NCBI GenBank assembly: GCA_027623675.1
Contig: JAQBVF010000005.1
Location: 64,001 to 128,000, forward strand
Reading direction: 5' to 3'
DNA length: 64,000 bases
From: Chloroflexota bacterium
GTDB taxonomy: Bacteria; Chloroflexota; Dehalococcoidia; Lucifugimonadales; UBA3495
How positions within the stretch are numbered: position 1 is the stretch's first letter; the number at the start of each line of letters is the position of its first letter. Positions 21,069 through 38,480 of this stretch are shown here, piece by piece. The notes below the pieces were generated by a model, which saw nothing but the letters and a program-made list of their open reading frames with translations, did no database searches and was not told where the DNA came from. The translations under genes and the position numbers were made by a program.

Positions 21069-22202
21069 ATGCCCAGCGAACTTGACCCGTCTGGTAGCCA
21101 CGCGAAGTCCAGAAAACAACTTGACCGCAACAAACTGAGCCTCGGCCTGTTCGGCGCCAATTGCTCCGGCGGCCTGGCAGTCACCACCGTTCCCGAGCGA
21201 TGGGAAGCGAGTTGGGAGAACAACCAGAAACTTGCCCGTATGGCCGATGACGCCGGCCTGGATTTCATGCTGCCGCTGGGCCGTTGGAAGGGATACGGCG
21301 GTGTTACCGAACATAACGCATCCAACTTTGAGAGCCTGACCTGGGCGACCGGCATCCTGGCCAGCACCAGCAACATCATGGCTTTCGGCACGGTCCACGT
21401 CTCGGTATTCAACCCGGTGGTTGCCGCCAAGCAGATGGTCACGGCCGACCATGTGGGCCAGGGGCGGTTCGGACTCAACATCGTCTGCGGCTGGAATTTC
21501 GATGAGTTCGACATGCTGGGCGTCAATCTCGCCCAGCACGACGACCGGTACGATCAGGGGCAAGAATGGATCGACGTCATCACCAGGGCGTGGTCTTGCG
21601 ACGAGCCCTTTGACTACGAAGGCAGGTTCTATCAGGTCCGCCAGACCGACATCAACCCCAAGCCCTACGGCCATGAGCGGCCGCTGATCGTCTGCGCCGG
21701 AAACTCGCCCAGGGGCAGGGAGTTCGCGGCCCGCAACGCCGACATGATGTTCACCAACCTGCGGAGCGAACTGGACGAGGTGCCCGCCAACACCGCGGCG
21801 CTCAAGAAGATGGCTGCGGGATACCACCGGGAGATCGGGGTGTTTTCCAACGTCGCCGTGATCTGCCGCCCGACCCGGAAAGAGGCGGAGGAGTATTTCC
21901 GGTATTACGCGGTGGAGAACGCCGACCACGATGCGGTTGAGAACATGATAATTGGAAGAGGGCTGAAGAAGCCGGGCGTGCCGGAGGACGTTATACAGGC
22001 GGCAAGGCTCCGCGCGGCCGGCGGCAACGGTGCGATGCCGATCATCGGCGGACCGGACGAGGTGGTGGCAACGATGAAACGCCTATCCGAGTCGGGGGTG
22101 ACGGCCCTGGCCATCGGACTGACCAACTACCTGGAGCATTTCCCCTACTTCCGAGATGAGGTGCTGCCACGGCTGGTCCGCCAAGGGCTGCGCGCCGAGT
22201 AA
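21069..22202 (+). CDS. LLM-class flavin-dependent oxidoreductase (RutA/SsuD-like)
   Basis: LGLFGANCSGG, GRWKGYGG, GRFGLNIVCGW, AGNSPRGREFAA. Confidence 0.9.
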   Translation: MPSELDPSGSHAKSRKQLDRNKLSLGLFGANCSGGLAVTTVPERWEASWENNQKLARMADDAGLDFMLPLGRWKGYGGVTEHNASNFESLTWATGILASTSNIMAFGTVHVSVFNPVVAAKQMVTADHVGQGRFGLNIVCGWNFDEFDMLGVNLAQHDDRYDQGQEWIDVITRAWSCDEPFDYEGRFYQVRQTDINPKPYGHERPLIVCAGNSPRGREFAARNADMMFTNLRSELDEVPANTAALKKMAAGYHREIGVFSNVAVICRPTRKEAEEYFRYYAVENADHDAVENMIIGRGLKKPGVPEDVIQAARLRAAGGNGAMPIIGGPDEVVATMKRLSESGVTALAIGLTNYLEHFPYFRDEVLPRLVRQGLRAE

Positions 22203-22221
22203 CTGACTGCTAGGCCTTCTG

Positions 22222-23376
22222 CTAGATACGTCCGTTCGGCTCCAACCCCAGAGCAACTCGGCCATACTGCAGCCCGCCCAACTCCATGATGAAGCCGTCG
22301 CGGCGGACCGCGGCCTGTATGTCCCGGTGGTGGCGCTGGAAGGCCGACGAATCGAATATGGCGTGGCCTCCGCTGAGTTCGAAAAGCCGGTTGACGGAGC
22401 TAAGGCAGGACTGGGCGACGAACGCCTTGTCCCGGCGAAAACGTGCCCGCTCCAGCGTGCTGAACGCCTCACCGTTGCGGGCCTTCTTAAACGTCTCCCG
22501 GATGTCGGCCCGCATCAGGGCGCGCGCCGCATCAAGCTCGGCCGATGACTGGGAGAGCCGCACCTGAACACCCTCAGAGTCCGCGGTGCGGCCCGGTCCC
22601 GATGTGCCGGTGAGCCGCTGGGTGAACTCGTCAATCATGGCCATGGTGATGCCGATCATCGGGGCAACCAGGTCCCATCCCAACAAGACCAGAGCCGGCA
22701 TGCGGTAGCGGTCGTCCTGGTGGATATCCCAACCGGTCCAGTCCCCGTCTCCGGCTTTCCTGCTTTCCGTGACCCGGTGACCGGGAACAAAGACGTCCTC
22801 CACGACGATGTCTTTGCTTCCGGTGCCCTTGAGGCCGGAGACGAACCAGGTGTCTATGATTTCATAATCGGAGCGTGGCAGCAGCATCCACACCAGACCG
22901 CCGGGTGTGTTTCCGCCCAGCATCACCCAGGCGGCGGCATCGCTCCCGCTGGAGAACTTCCAATGCCCGGAGAGCCGGTACCCTCCGGTCACCTTCTCCA
23001 ACGTCGAAACGCCCGGGTTCAGGGAACTGGAGCAGAGGACATCGGGGCCGTCCCCGAAAACTTCCTGCTGTGCTTCGAGCGGCCAGAATCCAATCAGCCA
23101 CGAGTGGGCCGACCAGATGCTGTAGCACCAACCGGTGGAGGCGCAGCCGCTGGACAGCACTGCACCGGCCTCAAGCATGGATCCGTATTCGACGTCCAGC
23201 CCGCCGAACCTCCGAGGAACTCCGATCCGGTGCAGACCAGACGCCAATATGTCCTGGACCGATTCATCCGGGACCCGGCGCAGCAACTCAGTGTGGGCCG
23301 CCCGTTCTTTGAGGCCTGGTACCATGGCCGACGCTCTTTTAAGGAGTTCGTCCAGAGTCAGGGCTTGGTCAGCCAT
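22222..23376 (-). CDS. acyl-CoA-dehydrogenase-fold flavin-dependent monooxygenase (HsaA/HpaB-like)
   Basis: VPRRFGG, CASTGW, GHWKFSSGSD, DTWFVSGLKGTGS, QRHHRD. Confidence 0.88.
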   Translation of the reverse strand: MADQALTLDELLKRASAMVPGLKERAAHTELLRRVPDESVQDILASGLHRIGVPRRFGGLDVEYGSMLEAGAVLSSGCASTGWCYSIWSAHSWLIGFWPLEAQQEVFGDGPDVLCSSSLNPGVSTLEKVTGGYRLSGHWKFSSGSDAAAWVMLGGNTPGGLVWMLLPRSDYEIIDTWFVSGLKGTGSKDIVVEDVFVPGHRVTESRKAGDGDWTGWDIHQDDRYRMPALVLLGWDLVAPMIGITMAMIDEFTQRLTGTSGPGRTADSEGVQVRLSQSSAELDAARALMRADIRETFKKARNGEAFSTLERARFRRDKAFVAQSCLSSVNRLFELSGGHAIFDSSAFQRHHRDIQAAVRRDGFIMELGGLQYGRVALGLEPNGRI

Positions 23377-23408: not shown

Positions 23409-23846
23409 CTAGCTGGCGGGCTCTGCGATGAAGACCGGGATCACGCGGTCGGTCTTGTCTTGGTATTCCTGGTACGGCGGGTAGGCTTCGACGGCTATGT
23501 CCCACAGCCGCTTCCGCTCGGACGCGTCTACCACCTCTCTCACCCGCATGGAATGGACCGCCGTCTTGTCGCGAATCTCAACGTTGGGGTCCGCCTTCAG
23601 GTTGTAATACCACACCGGGTGTTTGGGCGAGCCGCCCTGGGACGCCACCAGGATATAGTTGCCGCCGTCCACCGCCCGCATCAGGGGGGTCTTTCGGATG
23701 GCGCCCGTCTTGTTGCCTTGGTTGGTTACGATGATGACCGGCAGCCCGGTGTCTCTAAGGGTCAGGCCCTGGGTGCCCTGGCTGCCTTCATATAATTCCA
23801 CCTGATCTCTGACCCACTCGCGGGCGCTGGGTATGTATTCAGCCAT
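23409..23846 (-). CDS. deazaflavin (F420)-dependent nitroreductase family (Ddn-like)
   Basis: GNKTGAIRKTPL, VASQGGSPKHPVWYYNL, YQDKTDRVIPV. Confidence 0.9.
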   Translation of the reverse strand: MAEYIPSAREWVRDQVELYEGSQGTQGLTLRDTGLPVIIVTNQGNKTGAIRKTPLMRAVDGGNYILVASQGGSPKHPVWYYNLKADPNVEIRDKTAVHSMRVREVVDASERKRLWDIAVEAYPPYQEYQDKTDRVIPVFIAEPAS

Positions 23847-23876
23847 CGTGATCACCTCTTCGATCTTCGGAACGGT

Positions 23877-24587
23877 CTAGTGTTCGGCGGCGTCCGACGC
23901 CACGGGGTTGAACGTCACCCGAAGCACGGGTGCGTTGGACTCGTTGCGCCATTGGTGCAGGGTATCCGGCGGGACCAGTATGGCGTCGCCCTCGGTTACG
24001 GCGTAGTCAATGCCGCCGCAGGCCAGGACGCCCGTGCCTTCCAGCACATAGACCACATGCTCCCACGCGTGGGTGTGGCCGCCGGTCTCGGGATGGCTCA
24101 CCGCGCCCGGGGCCATGGCGCCGTTATACAGCATCACGTAGGTGGGCACGCCGTCGTTCAAGCCAAGGATGCGGCTGCCGGTTTGGGCGTTCAGGTCGGC
24201 GAAGTTGCGGATGACCGGGGCTTCGCCTGTGCCGGCGCCGCCGTTGTTGCCGGCGCCTCCGCTCTGGGCCGCGATCAGCGGGTTGATCTCGACGCGGCGG
24301 ATGTTACCCTTGCCGCCGTCATTCAGGGTGTAGTGGTCCACATTGCCGGGGATATACATGGCATCGCCGGCTTTCACCGGGTACTCCTTGCCGTCGCAGT
24401 GGAGAGTGCCAACGCCCTCCATGATGTAGACCTCGTGCTCCCACTTGTGGATGTGGTGAGAGCTGGTCTTGCCCGGCTCGATCACCGAGTAGCTCATGGT
24501 GCAGGTGGGCGGGTTGTCGTCCAGGGAGATGAGACGGGCCGGCTGGCCTGGCTCGAAGGTTCTGAAATTTCTGATCACTGGTTCCAT
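23877..24587 (-). CDS. bicupin (two cupin domains)
   Basis: Two H-x-H-x-W-E-H metal motifs (HHIHKWEHE, HTHAWEHV) and duplicated PVIRNF starts. Confidence 0.88.
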   Translation of the reverse strand: MEPVIRNFRTFEPGQPARLISLDDNPPTCTMSYSVIEPGKTSSHHIHKWEHEVYIMEGVGTLHCDGKEYPVKAGDAMYIPGNVDHYTLNDGGKGNIRRVEINPLIAAQSGGAGNNGGAGTGEAPVIRNFADLNAQTGSRILGLNDGVPTYVMLYNGAMAPGAVSHPETGGHTHAWEHVVYVLEGTGVLACGGIDYAVTEGDAILVPPDTLHQWRNESNAPVLRVTFNPVASDAAEH

Positions 24588-24755
24588 GGTGGCGGCTCCT
24601 TGTTCGGATATTCGTTACTAGTATAGCGGCAGAATCTTGCCGCAACGGAAGGCGCTCTCGCGGTCCAGTCAAGATTAATCGGACTGCCACTGGATATCAA
24701 CAGGGCGGGGTTAACGCGCCAGGGTTTTTCCAATATGACTTAATCGTCGATCTCG

Positions 24756-24859
24756 CCGCTCAGCCTGAGGCTCTCGAAGGGACGGCGCCGGTCTAGGTGC
24801 TGGTCAAGAGAAACAGGGTCCAACCCCAAAGGGTGGTTCGTTAGGCTCACCATGAGCGG
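24756..24859. repeat. inverted pair of REP-like elements
   Basis: 24756-24783 reads GTCCCTTCGAGAGCCTCAGGCTGAGCGG on minus; 24833-24859 reads GTGGTTCGTTAGGCTCACCATGAGCGG on plus; same family as 14590-14657. Confidence 0.7.
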
Positions 24860-24897
24860 CCATGTTACCTAAATGTTCTCGATGACAAAAACCCTGG

Positions 24898-26193
24898 TTA
24901 ATGGGCTGGGGCCATGCCGGCGCCCGAGGGCCTTCGCTCCCTGATGGTGAATACCGTCACAGTGGCGATGATCAAGAGGATGATGTTGCTCCAGATGGCG
25001 ATGTCGTAGGTGCCTCGGGAGTCGTAGAGCAGCCCGCCCAGGTAAGCGCCTAAGCCCGAACCCAGGGGCATCACGGCGAACATGGCACCGTAGATGGTGC
25101 CAAGTTTGGTGGTCCCGAACCGGTCTGAGGCATAGGCCGCGGTGATGGAAACCACGGCATTCCAGGAGAACCCCACCAGCAGCACCCCGGCGAGCAACAC
25201 GCCGATGCCAAGAGATGGAACATTGAGGAACGGTATCCCCATGGAGAGCAACACGAGGATGAAACCCAATGCCCTGAGATTGTAGGAAAAGCTCAGGTAG
25301 ATCCGCCGGCCGTGTCCGTCCGAAAGGTGTCCCAATACCAGCGCCCCGGCGATGGCGGCGGCGCCGATCAAGCTGAACGCTCCGGCGGCCACCATCTTGT
25401 GGTAGCCCAGGTCCTGCACGTAGGTGACGAAATGAGCGTTCACGAAGCTCATGGAATAGCCTCAAACGAAGTATCCCAAGGTTAGCCGGTAGAACAGAGG
25501 GGTATGGAACGCTTCCCGGACAGTTGCGTCCCGCCCCAGTAATTTCTCCCCATCAGACCTGGCTTGATGGCCGGCGGTTGTGCCGGCCCCAAACGGTTCC
25601 AACCCCATGTCCTGAGGCTTGTTTCGAATCAGCAGGAGCCCGGCGGGCAGCACCAGCACCAACAGCAACAAGCCTAAGAACCAGTAGGCATCTTTCCAGT
25701 CGAAGAGCACGAGGAAGAGCGAAGCTGCCGGTACCAGGATCATCGCCCCGAACGAACCCGCGCCGCTGACCAGCCCCATGGTCAGACCCCTGCGGGTGTG
25801 GAACCAGCTGCCGACCACTTTCGTCAGAATAGGGCCGGTGCCGAGGGTGATGCCGATGCTCATGATGGCGAACAGGGCGTAGAGCTGGCCCAAGCTCTCG
25901 ATGAACGGTATGAACAACAGTATCGTTCCCATCACCGCCACGCCGGAGAGCATGGCCGTCTTGGCGCTGTAGCGGTCGGCCAGATACCCCGCCAACGGAC
26001 GCAGCAGGCCAGAGATCATGAAGGTCAGGGCGAAGGCCAGCGAGAGGGAGCCGCGGCTCCAGCCGAACTCCTCGGTCATCGGCTTGAGAAAGACGCCGAA
26101 CGAGAACTGGCCGCCGGCAACCCCGAACGACACCAGCACGCATCCCGCCACCACGAACCAGCCGTAGAAATACTTCCGGCCGAATAATCTCAT
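24898..26193 (-). CDS. MFS transporter (OFA/MCT-like), 431 codons with one in-frame TGA at 25462-25464; candidate selenoprotein or nonsense allele
   Basis: ORFs 25462-26193 and 24898-25452 share one frame (LGYFV*GYSMSFVNAHFV) and together give a 12-TM MFS with both A-motifs (GYLADRYSAK, GHLSDGHGRR). Confidence 0.85.
25432..25452 (-). promoter_or_regulatory. candidate bacterial SECIS-like hairpin
   Basis: mRNA UGA-GGCUAUUCC-AUGAGC-UUCGUGAAC-GCUCAU: 6-bp perfect stem after a 9-nt spacer, extendable by UU/AA around a G-containing loop. Confidence 0.45.
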
Positions 26194-26265
26194 TCTTGGC
26201 TCTCCGCGGTTATACAGCTGGACCGGTCCGGGATTCCTCGTTTGTTTCGGGAAACTACCTGTTGC

Positions 26266-26295
26266 AAGCCGGGAATCACAAATGATTCCCGGCTT
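26266..26295. terminator. strong intergenic hairpin between rhodanese and MFS genes
   Basis: AAGCCGGGAATCA-CAAA-TGATTCCCGGCTT; no clear U-tract, so it may be a stabiliser or processing site. Confidence 0.45.
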
Positions 26296-26348
26296 CGCTT
26301 AAACCTTAGCGAAACATTAGTGATCTTGGTTGAGGTCTGGCCGCCCCG

Positions 26349-27218
26349 CTAGCCGGTCTGCATGGGCAATGACGGGTCTGACGCCCATTCTGACATCGAA
26401 GCGTCGTACACCGCCACATTCTCGTATCCCAGCAACGTCAAGATGAAGGCGTCGTTGCTGGCCGCGATCCCCCCGCCGCAGTAGGTGATAACCCGCTCTG
26501 CGGGGTCCGCGCCGACCTGGGCGAACCGTTCCGCCAGTTGCTCGGCTGGGAGATAGGCGTGGGTGACCGGGTCCATCAGGTCGCCCGCCGGTACGTTGAC
26601 GCTGCCGGCGATGCGCCCGGCGCGCCCGTAGTTGGCGCCGCCGCTGCCCAGGTGCTGTTCCTGGCTTAACGCATTCAGCACGCAGGCGGCGCCCTGTTCC
26701 AACGCCGCCAGCACCTCGCTCTTATCAGCCATGAGCCCGGTCCTGGGTCTGGCGTGGAATATGGTGGGGGGATAGTCCCGTTGTTCCGTCGTTACCGGCC
26801 GGCCCTCCAGCTTCCATTTTTGAAGGCCGCCGTTCAGGACAAAGGCGTTGTCGAATCCGAAAGCCCGGAGCATCCACCAGATACGGGTCGCCCAGGAACC
26901 GGACGTTGAGTCGTACAGCACCGCCCGGGCGCCCACGCCCACCCCGTATCCGGACATGGCCCTGGCGAACTGTTCAACCGGCGGGAGCATGTATCGGAAG
27001 GCGGCAGACCGGTCCGAGAGGTCGTTTACGAGGTCGGCATGGCCGGCGCCGGGGATGTGTTCCGCTGCCCAAGACTCGCGCCCGCTCGCCGCCCGGATGC
27101 CGCCGCTGCCATCGGGCAGGTTAAATGCGGTGCAGTCCAGAACGCGTATGTCACTGTCGTTCAGATGCTCGGCGAGCCAATCCGTCTCCACCAAGAATTG
27201 TGGATACTTAAATGGCAT
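26349..27218 (-). CDS. tandem-domain sulfurtransferase (rhodanese/SseA-like)
   Basis: HIPGA, RIWWML, LNGGLQKW, active loop YCGGGIAA, YDASMSEW; GGAGG RBS before ATG 27218. Confidence 0.93.
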   Translation of the reverse strand: MPFKYPQFLVETDWLAEHLNDSDIRVLDCTAFNLPDGSGGIRAASGRESWAAEHIPGAGHADLVNDLSDRSAAFRYMLPPVEQFARAMSGYGVGVGARAVLYDSTSGSWATRIWWMLRAFGFDNAFVLNGGLQKWKLEGRPVTTEQRDYPPTIFHARPRTGLMADKSEVLAALEQGAACVLNALSQEQHLGSGGANYGRAGRIAGSVNVPAGDLMDPVTHAYLPAEQLAERFAQVGADPAERVITYCGGGIAASNDAFILTLLGYENVAVYDASMSEWASDPSLPMQTG

Positions 27219-27551
27219 CTTGGACCCTCCATTGATTTTTCCGGACCAGGTTATTCTGCCGGACCTGGGAAGTTTCGCCAGACTTGGGCTGGAGACCATG
27301 ATAGGTTACCTAATCTGGTCAATAATATCGCGGCCGGTGCTCGACATAACAGAGGGCAGTATTATCATTTTTATGATGGATCCCGTAAAGGGATATCGGT
27401 TGACGCTGGCATCGCGGCCCAACCATAATCCGGTGGGTAAGCACAACGGGAAGAGATGCCGGATAGGCTCGCGAAAACCGGTCTCCCGTCAGCAAGTTAG
27501 TCTGATTCTAGCCCAGGCTTCGGCCTGTGCCACCAACACTAGGAGGCTAAG

Positions 27552-28625
27552 ATGCCGGACCCAGCGTTGAATTCGTATAAAGACCTTAACGTTCTTTCCG
27601 CGGACCCGGTCTGTGCCGGGGTATTCCTGCGCGACATGGAAGCGCCCGTGTCTTCCACGGAGGGCCACTTCATCCGCAGTCACTTTCCGGCGCCTCAGGT
27701 GGAGGCTGCCGATTGGTCGCTGCCGGTCACCGGCGACGTGGACAACTCCCTTGACCTCAGTTACTACGACCTGCTCAATATGCCCAGCCACGAGGTCGTG
27801 AGCATCATGGAATGTGCCGGCAACAGCCGGTCGACCATGCAGCCCCCGGCTGAGGGCGTCCAGTGGGACAATGGGGGACTGGGCGTTTCACGGTGGAAGG
27901 GTGTTCCGGTCAAGACCGTGCTGGAACGGGCATCCCTCAAGGGCGTCGCCACCGACGTTTTGTTCGAGGGCCTGGATTCGGGCACCGAGCCGCACTCGGG
28001 TGGCGAACTGGTCTATGCCATGAGCGTGCCGCTGGCGAAATTGCTGGACCCCGACACCATCTTGGCCTATGAGATGAACGGCGAGACCATCCCCAAGGAC
28101 CACGGCTTCCCCGTCCGCCTGCTGGTTCCCGGCTGGTACGGCATGGCCTCGGTCAAATGGCTGGCCAAGATCACGGTTATGGACCACCCAAACTGCGGCT
28201 TCCATGAGATGGACTACCGCATATATCCGGCCACCGACGGCAAGAGCGACGCAAAAGCCAAGCGCGTCACCAAGCTGAAGGTTAAGTCGCTGATCAGCTC
28301 TCCGGTAAAAGGAGACGTCCTTTGCCCCGGCTCCCATACTATCAAGGGCGTGGCTTGGTCGGGCGACGGGCACATCACCAAGGTTGAGGTTAGCACCGAC
28401 GACAACCGCACCTGGCGCGAGGCCAAGCTGGAGGCGCCGGTCGGCAACTACTCGTGGCAGCACTGGGAGATTGACTGGGACGCAGCGGCTACGGGGCACT
28501 CGCTGCTCCGTTCCAGGGCCACCGACAGCCAGGGCAACGTTCAGCCCATGCTGGCGCCATGGAATTTCCGGGGCTACCAGGTGAACTCGATACATTCCGT
28601 GCCCGTCACGGTACGCAAGCCCTAG
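27552..28625 (+). CDS. sulfite oxidase family molybdoenzyme
   Basis: FIRSH, ECAGN (Mo-ligand Cys), YEMNGE..DHGFPVRLLVPGWYG..SVKWL, C-terminal dimerisation domain. Confidence 0.92.
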   Translation: MPDPALNSYKDLNVLSADPVCAGVFLRDMEAPVSSTEGHFIRSHFPAPQVEAADWSLPVTGDVDNSLDLSYYDLLNMPSHEVVSIMECAGNSRSTMQPPAEGVQWDNGGLGVSRWKGVPVKTVLERASLKGVATDVLFEGLDSGTEPHSGGELVYAMSVPLAKLLDPDTILAYEMNGETIPKDHGFPVRLLVPGWYGMASVKWLAKITVMDHPNCGFHEMDYRIYPATDGKSDAKAKRVTKLKVKSLISSPVKGDVLCPGSHTIKGVAWSGDGHITKVEVSTDDNRTWREAKLEAPVGNYSWQHWEIDWDAAATGHSLLRSRATDSQGNVQPMLAPWNFRGYQVNSIHSVPVTVRKP

Positions 28626-36878: not shown

Positions 36879-38480
36879 CTATTCCCACTCGATGGTGCCA
36901 GGTGGTTTGCTGGTGATGTCGTAGACCACCCGGTTCACGCCGGGCACCTCGTTAACGATACGGTTGGACATGCGGGCCAGCACCTCGTAGGGCAGGCGCA
37001 CCCAATCGGCGGTCATGGCGTCGTCGCTGGAGACGGCCCGGATGGCGCATACATAGCCGTAGGTGCGGTAATCTCCCTGAACACCAACGGTTCGGCTGTT
37101 GCTCAGAACCGCGAAGCTCTGCCACATCTGGTCATAGAGATTGGCGGCTTTGATCTCGTCGATCACGATCCAGTCGCATTTCCGCAACATCTCCAGGCGT
37201 TCCGGGGTGACTTCGCCGATGATCCTGATGGCCAGGCCTGGGCCGGGGAATGGCTGGCGGTAGACCATGTCGTTGGGCAATCCCAGCGCCAATCCGACCT
37301 CGCGTACCTCGTCCTTGAACAGATAGCGGAGTGGCTCCACCAACTCCAGCTTCATGTTCTCCGGCAGTCCGCCGACGTTGTGGTGGGTCTTGATGCGTGC
37401 TGAGGTGCGGTTCTCCGGGGACTCGCTTTCAATCACATCGGGGTAGAGGGTACCCTGGGCCAGGAAATCCGTGTGGCCCAGCCCCGATGCGGCGTCCTCG
37501 AAGACCCGGATGAACTCTTCGCCGATCACCTTACGCTTTAACTCGGGGTCGGTGACGTTCTTAAGCTTGTCCAAGAACCGGTCGGTTGCGTCCACGTAAG
37601 TCAGGTTCAGCCCAAGACCGCGTTTGAAGGTTGCTTGGACGCGCTCGGCTTCTTCCAGGCGCAGCAGACCGTTATTCACGAAGATACAGGTGAGTTGGTC
37701 GCCGATGGCCTGGTGCAGCAGCCCGGCGGTGACCGCCGAGTCCACTCCGCCGGAAAGGGCGCAAATCACTTTGCCGTCGCCGACCTGCTCCCGGATGTTC
37801 TTGATGGAGTCGTGGACCACGTTGCCGGGGGTCCAGTCGCCCTTGCAACCACAGGCCTTGAACAGGAAGTTGTTGAGGATGTCCTGCCCCAGCGGAGTGT
37901 GGTTCACCTCGGGATGGAACTGGATGCCGAACATGTTATCGCCGTTGCCGATGGCGGCCACTGGGGAGTTCTCGGTGTAGGCCATGCTGGTGAAGCCGGG
38001 GGGCAACGACTCAACCCGGTCGCCGTGGCTCATCCAAACCTGGAAGGACGGCGGCAGGTCGTCGAACAGAGCGGCGTCTCCGGCGTCGTCTTGGTGAAGG
38101 ACGGCGTAACCGAATTCCTGCTTGTCGCCTGGGGCCACTTTGCCGCCCAGTTGGTGCACCAGAGCCTGCATGCCGTAGCAGATGCCAAGGACCGGGAGAC
38201 CGCGCTCAAAGACCCAATCGGGGATCTGGGGGGCGCCTTCTTCGTAGACGCTGGCCGGTCCGCCGGAGAGGATGACGCCCTTGGGGTTGAGGTGCTTGAT
38301 GGAATCCCAGGTGCTCTTGGACTGGGCAATCATCGAGTAGACATTCAACTCGCGGATGCGGCGGGCTATCAGGTGGCTGTACTGCGAGCCGAAGTCGATG
38401 ACGACCACGCCCTCGCTGACAGATTGCTGGCCGTCGTCATCATCGGGGCCAACGCCCTCCAAGCCCTTGGCGATCTCCAA
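36879..38480 (-). CDS. guaA: GMP synthase (glutamine-hydrolysing)
   Basis: [49 protein letters not shown]; start uncertain (see findings). Confidence 0.97.

Follow-up and report, generated by a model that had tools for sequence, protein, structure and literature searches.

Passages of a 2026 review (PMC13188914) name several predicted selenocysteine (Sec)-containing transporters: the YeeE/YedE thiosulfate family (GUxSG), the SO_0444 family for Cu/Zn efflux (UxC), a mercuric transport protein (MerT-like), an E1-E2 cation ATPase and the ATP-binding cassette (ABC) components SaoX, SaoB and SaoP. Within the major facilitator superfamily (MFS), the described proteins closest to the one reported here are SfMCT, an L-lactate/H+ symporter of Syntrophobacter fumaroxidans and SLC16 homologue (6g9x, 6hcl), and the oxalate:formate antiporter OxlT (8hpk), both of which are without Sec. 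Analysis of a 64,000-nucleotide stretch from a Chloroflexota bacterium (GenBank assembly GCA_027623675.1, contig JAQBVF010000005.1, positions 64,001 to 128,000), here called the window, revealed an OFA/MCT-like MFS transporter gene with a single in-frame TGA at codon 244. This UGA is very probably decoded as Sec within one 431-residue, 12-helix transporter. The window lies on contig C13 of a 48-contig, 3.07-Mb assembly that is 91% complete.

The Sec transporters named in those review passages share with this gene a role in membrane transport, an in-frame UGA at a conserved Cys position and the bacterial system of SelB and a selenocysteine insertion sequence (SECIS). They differ from it in that none is an MFS protein and that metal sites or motifs with paired Cys/Sec are present in most of them. 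Neither "MFS" nor "major facilitator" occurs even once in the 2026 review, in a 2022 review (PMC9312934), in the BSepDB paper with one supplement (about 4 million characters; the BSepDB website and subscription journals lay outside the search) or in the deep-Sep paper with four supplements. A search of the full-text literature with selenoprotein and MFS terms returned unrelated papers only, and the combination of SAR202 and selenocysteine returned nothing relevant. The prediction of a new selenoprotein family, in which mechanistically ordinary bacterial Sec recoding affects an OFA/MCT-like MFS protein of an uncharacterised Cys-bearing subfamily, is well supported by the sequence comparisons that follow.

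An MFS transporter gene with an in-frame UGA in transmembrane helix 7

The gene and its elements are located as follows.

24898..26193, minus strand: complete predicted selenoprotein gene for an OFA/MCT-like MFS transporter, 431 codons plus TAA stop (read-through protein P0001)
25462..25464, minus strand: UGA codon 244 in the middle of transmembrane helix 7 (TM7, helix 232-261), the sole in-frame TGA, conserved across orthologues and aligned with Cys in homologues
25453..25461, minus strand: codons 245-247 (Gly-Tyr-Ser), which separate the UGA from the following AUG, assessed by third-position variation
25432..25452, minus strand: apical part of the candidate SECIS, AUGAGC / UUCGUGAAC / GCUCAU, codons 248-254, based on sequence, synonymous constraint and RNAalifold
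25419..25468, minus strand: extended consensus stem-loop with the UGA in its lower stem (RNAalifold, alignment columns 9-58)
25411..25434, minus strand: codons 254-261 with His254 and Asp261, aligned to the SfMCT proton site H250 and D257

Two open reading frames (ORFs) share one frame of the minus strand, 26193..25462 (243 amino acids) and 25452..24898 (184 amino acids), and are parted by a single TGA (25464..25462) in the context LTLGYFV-U-GYSMSFVNAHFV. Taking the TGA as U yields one 431-residue protein (P0001), which was recognized by the Pfam family MFS_1 (PF07690) with an E value of 2e-53 and 181.8 bits against a cut-off of 33.4. AlphaFold2, supplied with a 99-sequence alignment, produced a 12-helix MFS fold with a mean predicted local distance difference test score (pLDDT) of 91.5 and a predicted template modelling score (pTM) of 0.90. 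Searching with this model in Foldseek gave 478 matches in the Protein Data Bank at E <= 0.001, with MFS transporters on top; the best were SfMCT (6zgs, 6hcl) and OxlT (8hpk), with E values of about 1e-15 and template modelling scores of 0.71-0.86. The first-pass annotation had described two MFS ORFs in one frame with a single TGA at 25462-25464, a 431-codon read-through, a 6-bp AUGAGC/GCUCAU stem after a 9-nt spacer and a break inside TM7. The first three are confirmed by the sequence, and the last by the AlphaFold2 model, in which codon 244 is the middle of helix 232-261.

Orthologues were collected from 203 genomes of the taxonomic family, which comprise 27 genera. The gene is present in 113 of the 203 species-level genomes of this one marine Dehalococcoidia family, and one of them (G544) has two copies (C1:3302405-3303670 and 3429476-3430741), both with the TGA. 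The search returned 117 matching rows in 114 of the 203 genomes. An internal TGA was found in all 114 rows that span codon 244 (113 genomes, 15 of the 27 genera); 113 of these rows have one TGA and one row (G002) has two. The remaining 3 rows are stop-free, and none of them covers codon 244. A six-frame search of 61 related genomes gave 20 matches with at least 62% identity, each with an in-frame TGA, and weaker matches (at most 36% identity), which are uninterrupted paralogues. The TGA occupies the identical alignment column in 20 of 20 sequences of this first set and in all 51 loci inspected as DNA (38 distinct sequences). In the set of 20 genes, the terminal stop drifts (TAG in 14, TAA in 3, TGA in 3) and the internal codon is always TGA. 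Cys at codon 244 was seen in no orthologue of the family genomes searched. Sampling 401 genomes evenly at class level added only 4 matches at E <= 1e-70, with 35-40% identity and no stop.

Selection on the two halves was compared in 630 pairwise comparisons of the 38 distinct orthologues. The median ratio of nonsynonymous to synonymous rates (dN/dS) was 0.216 for codons 1-243 versus 0.145 for the 180 codons after the TGA, with dS of about 1.2-1.3 in both parts. Across codons 245-247 the only change at first or second positions is a replacement of Ser by Thr in 3 sequences, and the third positions vary freely (G 23, C 9, T 5, A 1; C 33, T 5; G 20, C 15, A 2, T 1). Since they vary at third positions, codons 245-247 behave as translated codons and not as an intercistronic spacer. 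Judged from these substitution patterns, the half downstream of the TGA, which has 187 codons in this gene, is under purifying selection and is translated.

Cys homologues were retrieved by a HMMER search of 1.84 billion representative proteins, drawn from a public library that represents about 15 billion predicted proteins. The search gave 773 matches below 1e-30, and the 135 sequences of at least 380 amino acids among the best 150 matches, query included, were aligned. The U244 column holds Cys in 85 of the 134 full-length homologues (86 of 135 if the stand-in C of the query is counted), in keeping with the TM7 Cys motif that had been ascribed at the outset to OFA/MCT-like homologues. The homologues share the TM7 motif F-F-V-C-G-F-T...H, and all of the nearest full-length ones (36-42% identity) have the Cys. 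A tabulation of TGA versus Cys, which had been put forward as a check, thus gives an internal TGA in 114 of 114 orthologue matches spanning the codon and mostly Cys in distant homologues. The Cys homologues (e.g., P0003, P0004 and P0005, with 42%, 41% and 38% identity) align over the full length and enclose the Sec clade; they differ from the Sec forms in having Cys (TGC/TGT) instead of UGA and in being annotated as single genes. No characterised function was found among them. A maximum-likelihood tree computed from the N-terminal halves groups the 38 Sec sequences with P0002 in one clade (Shimodaira-Hasegawa-like approximate likelihood ratio test [SH-aLRT] support of 99), which is nested among Cys forms.

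All library relatives with more than 42% identity are fragments, which either end at residue 243 (P0002, 247 amino acids) or begin at Met248. P0019, P0083 and P0095, for example, begin at MSFVNAH. No public gene call in the library searched reads the gene through. Because the relatives are all fragments broken at codon 244, these transporters are counted as two broken genes. Two further proteins, P0051 (241 amino acids) and P0148 (248 amino acids), with 40% and 43% identity to the N-terminal half, respectively, end one residue before the Cys/Sec column and are 38% identical to each other. P0051 is the sister of the Sec clade (support 92), and its 90%-identity cluster has 10 members, of which 9 are likewise 241 amino acids long, on contigs of up to 4.2 Mb. 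Given the shared end point of the two proteins, the Sec form may be older than the family and more widespread. As to the DNA of these two lineages, a metagenome scan gave only relatives with 32-42% identity, and a phylum-level genome search gave only stop-free matches.

Selenocysteine machinery and the hairpin 3' of the UGA

Analysis of the genome revealed the complete set of genes that the first-pass annotation had named as a check: a tRNA-Sec, detected by ARAGORN and by Rfam (70.4 bits, cut-off 47), as well as selA (555 bits), selB (348 bits) and selD (380 bits). Within the family, selA scores above the cut-off in 194 of the 203 genomes. Among the 114 carriers of the transporter it does so in all but one (113), and that one assembly is only 74% complete. 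The selD gene (contig C3:53424-54344, locus L010) itself has an in-frame TGA at the classical position (...SHCAGU AAKL...), and about 27 nt after this UGA comes an 8-bp stem capped by a GUC loop.

The mRNA of the transporter can fold, 9 nt past the UGA, into AUGAGC-UUCGUGAAC-GCUCAU, a 6-bp stem with a 9-nt loop. Within the loop is a GU whose G lies at +19, counted from the UGA. The single-sequence minimum-energy fold prefers another pairing, which is not conserved and was rejected. Synonymous-codon entropy, calculated from 20 orthologues, is lowest for the whole gene in the windows starting at codons 246-250 (0.31-0.49 compared with a mean of 1.20). In the 38 distinct orthologues the hairpin codons UUC and GUG are found in 38 of 38 sequences, GCU in 37 of 38 and AGC in 34, the others having AGU (3 sequences, giving a G-U pair) or UCG (1 sequence). 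The only free sites in the hairpin block are the third bases of AAY and CAY. The former becomes a bulge if the stem gains two U-A pairs around a CGUG tetraloop, and the latter closes the stem in some sequences only. The conserved hairpin overlaps codons 245-258.

RNAalifold, applied to 20 sequences, predicted a stem-loop over columns 9-58 with the A of the UGA in the lower stem. The apical stem UGAGC/GCUCA is kept in 20 of 20 sequences, once with a G-U pair, and the lower-stem pairs are mostly kept, a few being broken. In the most divergent orthologue (L110, 61% identity), AGC is replaced by UCG, GCU by GCG and UUC by AUC, and the preceding codon is changed as well. This sequence still forms an 11-bp hairpin around the same UCGUGAAC loop with other base pairs, which reads as compensation at the level of structure.

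In a seawater metagenome of another study (run X3), contigs of related organisms align only over 25439-25487 and then diverge. Their summed word depth reaches about 390, and the match is confined to about 48 nt around the TGA and the hairpin. This illustrates that the block 25439-25487 is conserved at the nucleotide level among many environmental relatives. Among the public runs, none with RNA was listed.

In the proposed mechanism, SelB with Sec-tRNA(Sec) would be recruited by a SECIS hairpin that comes immediately after the UGA, within the coding sequence. The features recognized would be the apical stem UGAGC/GCUCA, the loop UUCGUGAAY and the GU at +19/+20. We infer that SelB binds this hairpin; binding to the apical loop would deliver Sec at codon 244 and the ribosome would then make the C-terminal half. 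Sec would replace the conserved mid-TM7 Cys (F-F-V-C-G) of the OFA/MCT-like subfamily. When selenium is scarce, termination would leave a protein cut off after six and a half helices, which is presumably inactive. The full-length protein would be a proton-coupled carrier of the organic-anion type that keeps the His/Asp proton site of SfMCT and is without the TM8 arginine.

The genome looks rich in selenoproteins. Five paralogues have a [GA][DN]-U-GSC...HD motif, at least 3 candidates have U-P-[AG]-C, and several thioredoxin- or peroxiredoxin-like ones have U-x-x-C. Candidate sites include C17:90926+, C20:60801-, C35:86572+, C35:40727+, C13:78714-, C10:72169-, C43:22841+ and C26:10223+, with coordinates given on the oriented strand; these candidates were identified by motif, and in most of them a 6- to 9-bp hairpin with GU in its loop follows the TGA at a distance of about 18-20 nt. 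Several candidates of the UxxC type have 6- to 9-bp stems with GUG, GUA or AGUUA loops and a G at +18..+20. A GU-loop hairpin occurs in 12 of 27 motif-bearing candidates compared with a background of 6.6%, in a set that mixes true and false selenoprotein genes. Formate dehydrogenase was rejected as a second SECIS reference, as the Fdh-alpha-like gene of this genome has no in-frame stop. A genome-wide scan for in-frame TGA by codon-usage score was also set aside; it gave 255 candidates with many false positives, and the transporter gene fell below its threshold. In the window, a candidate TGA at 37401 proved to be an antisense artefact.

Weighing the selenocysteine reading

The suggestion in the first-pass annotation that the TGA may encode Sec is supported by the conservation of the TGA, the Cys homologues, the Sec machinery and the conservation of the hairpin. 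All computational checks named in that annotation favoured Sec, and none of its refuting conditions applied. Several observations weigh against it. The 71-nt single-sequence fold has a z score of -0.9 relative to shuffles, and a hairpin of like geometry (5 bp or more in the stem and 3-9 nt in the loop, which contains GU with its G between +17 and +22) is also found after 1328 of 20000 TGAs picked at random in the genome (6.6%). An Rfam scan of the region gave 0 matches at E <= 10. No two-sided compensatory change was found within the main clade among the 20 sequences given to RNAalifold, because the arms are frozen, and structural compensation is limited to one sequence (L110) and achieved by a register shift. 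Of the hairpin conservation that had been proposed as a check, a sequence frozen even at synonymous sites was obtained and classical covariation was not. The hairpin taken alone is not beyond chance; the conservation of the TGA together with the hairpin sequence across genomes is far beyond chance.

Further points on the same side concern the gene itself. An AUG lies four codons past the UGA, with GAGG at -11..-8, which makes a restart physically conceivable. In the phmmer alignment to 6g9x, the U244 column falls on Gly240 of SfMCT, beside Cys239. A few orthologues look decayed: those of G541 (C5:124263-125524) and G542 (C1:4567215-4568473) are each split between frames, and that of G002 (C5:62402-63571, L027) has its second TGA near codon 390, with the match stopping at residue 387. 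These damaged orthologues may reflect decay in some species or assembly errors. The gene neighbourhood is not conserved across genera and so supports no substrate.

The AUG and the GAGG would suit a natural two-piece transporter, in which the TGA is a real stop, the C-terminal half is made from AUG248 by coupling or restart and the conserved nucleotides serve initiation; public gene callers predict exactly these two pieces (P0002; P0019, P0083 and P0095). This explanation is nevertheless very improbable. The main argument comes from codons 245-247, in which variation is restricted to third positions; they specify the G-[YF]-[ST] found after the Cys in homologues, whose residue at the stop position is that Cys. 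The stop is always TGA (114/114), in contrast to the terminal stop, which drifts among TAG, TAA and TGA. Moreover, the AUG precedes the frozen nucleotides instead of following them, and the break would cut TM7 in mid-helix, not between domains.

The sequence data show continued translation, not which residue is inserted. The UGA might accordingly be read through without Sec, by near-cognate or suppressor decoding (Trp/Cys/Gly) or in a leaky context, with the hairpin as a stimulator only, and no Rfam SECIS model matches the region. There is only a slender chance of this, given that selA is found in this genome and in 194 of the 203 genomes of the family, that selB, selD and tRNA-Sec are present here and that the homologue residue is Cys, the classical partner of Sec. 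The position of the hairpin and its loop GU are as in the other candidate selenoprotein genes of the genome, and TGA is also an ordinary terminator in the orthologues.

A pseudogene, point mutation or sequencing error (TGC/TGT to TGA in this genome only), which is the null for any lone in-frame stop, has a real case in the same genome (C47:14580-15905) and was the null adopted by the first-pass annotation, has a negligible probability and is refuted here by a TGA common to 113 genomes with no Cys-bearing orthologue, by the downstream dN/dS of 0.145 and by identical letters in contigs of an independent run from a second sample.

The real case is a second MFS gene (minus strand, P0165, 442 amino acids) with an in-frame TGA at codon 359, which served as a negative control. 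The TGA was found in 0 of 49 other orthologue rows (48 family genomes), and the 7 orthologues examined have GGN (Gly). On sequence grounds, this TGA stems from either an isolated nonsense mutation or faulty assembly, a pattern opposite to that at codon 244 of the Sec transporter. For the transporter, contigs of two runs of one study were compared, and no letter differs over the stretch; the second run is from another sample, and one of the two runs may be the source of this DNA. Because the letters are identical in a run from another sample, the TGA of the transporter is not an assembly error.

Probable transport mode and possible role of the predicted TM7 selenol

SfMCT is the best sequence match of the Sec transporter (6g9x, E value 5e-31). 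SfMCT and OxlT share its 12-helix MFS architecture at an identity of only 24-25%, and their residues in the Sec column are Gly and Val, respectively. The read-through protein scored 154.7 bits with NCBIfam NF049980 (SfMCT type, cut-off 320) and 111.7 bits with TIGR00890 (OFA family, cut-off 374.85), in both cases below the cut-off. In the alignment, the counterparts of H250 and D257 of SfMCT are His254 and Asp261, both invariant in the 38 orthologues, and the His254 column holds His in 127 of the 135 aligned sequences. According to passages of the SfMCT paper, H250 is a cavity-exposed proton acceptor and D257 a proton antenna, and mutants indicate that they are needed for transport (PMC6573034). 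Since both residues are aligned and invariant, the Sec transporter is likely proton coupled. In place of N276 and R280, which bind the substrate in SfMCT, the Sec transporter has Ala280 and Ala284, so that the carboxylate site is lost. In the same passages, R280 in TM8 of SfMCT binds the carboxylate (PMC6573034). Having alanines at both positions, the Sec transporter would not bind its substrate as lactate is bound in SfMCT.

Genes surrounding the transporter in the window are the following.

23409-23855, minus strand: F420H2-dependent quinone reductase
23877-24587, minus strand: bicupin, downstream of the transporter
26349-27299, minus strand: two-domain rhodanese, upstream of the transporter
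27552-28625, plus strand: sulfite-oxidase-like molybdopterin (Moco) oxidoreductase
21069-23376: acyl-CoA-dehydrogenase-like and luciferase-like monooxygenase genes, which adjoin the cluster

At 23409-28625 of the window, the transporter thus stands in a cluster with a flavour of sulfur metabolism. In other species of the genus, 8 of 33 loci have a gene for a metallo-beta-lactamase (MBL)-fold protein upstream, and 5 of the 33 have one for a four-rhodanese protein downstream. Other genera have unrelated, generic catabolic neighbours. A tblastn search with the rhodanese, bicupin, Moco oxidoreductase and F420H2 reductase of the window against 20 loci (this locus and 19 other orthologue loci) returned only their own copies and one weak rhodanese match. 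When the genes within about 7 kb were clustered for 21 loci, the two halves of the transporter gene were the only clusters common to more than 6 of them. The neighbourhood was rejected as a clue to the substrate, as the arrangement differs across genera.

TM7 is a cavity helix in MFS proteins generally, and U244-G245 is a mid-helix position. Sec244 is the only invariant Cys/Sec of the protein in the 38 orthologues; Cys18 is found in just 26 of them. An intramolecular selenenylsulfide switch is therefore unlikely. Having no partner Cys, the selenol would act alone, either on the substrate, which it would bind as a ligand or attack as a nucleophile, or in redox sensing. Tentatively, the lone selenol on a central-cavity or gating helix might meet the substrate, a solute bearing sulfur, selenium or a metal for which it would serve as soft nucleophile or ligand, or might form a redox-sensitive gate; this is possible, with the balance of probability against it. 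That the TM7 selenol is part of the translocation pathway and engages in transient Se-S or Se-Se (chalcogen) bonding with the substrate is unlikely. Compatible with such bonding are the sole invariant Cys/Sec, the loss of the carboxylate Arg of SfMCT and the rhodanese genes beside the gene here and at 5 other loci of the genus. Against it stands the lack of conservation of the neighbourhood across genera. No mid-TM7 ligand contact is named in the passages of the SfMCT paper that were searched (PMC6573034).

No other family of secondary transporters is as large as the MFS, and no MFS selenoprotein is listed in the catalogues searched (2022, 2025 and 2026). It is unusual that the predicted Sec lies inside a transmembrane helix, not in a soluble redox motif, and has no partner cysteine. 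The gene also exposes a systematic annotation error, as gene callers cut it in two. The Sec and Cys forms would be natural isosteres, and their comparison could reveal the role of the conserved TM7 Cys in a large uncharacterised subfamily of transporters.

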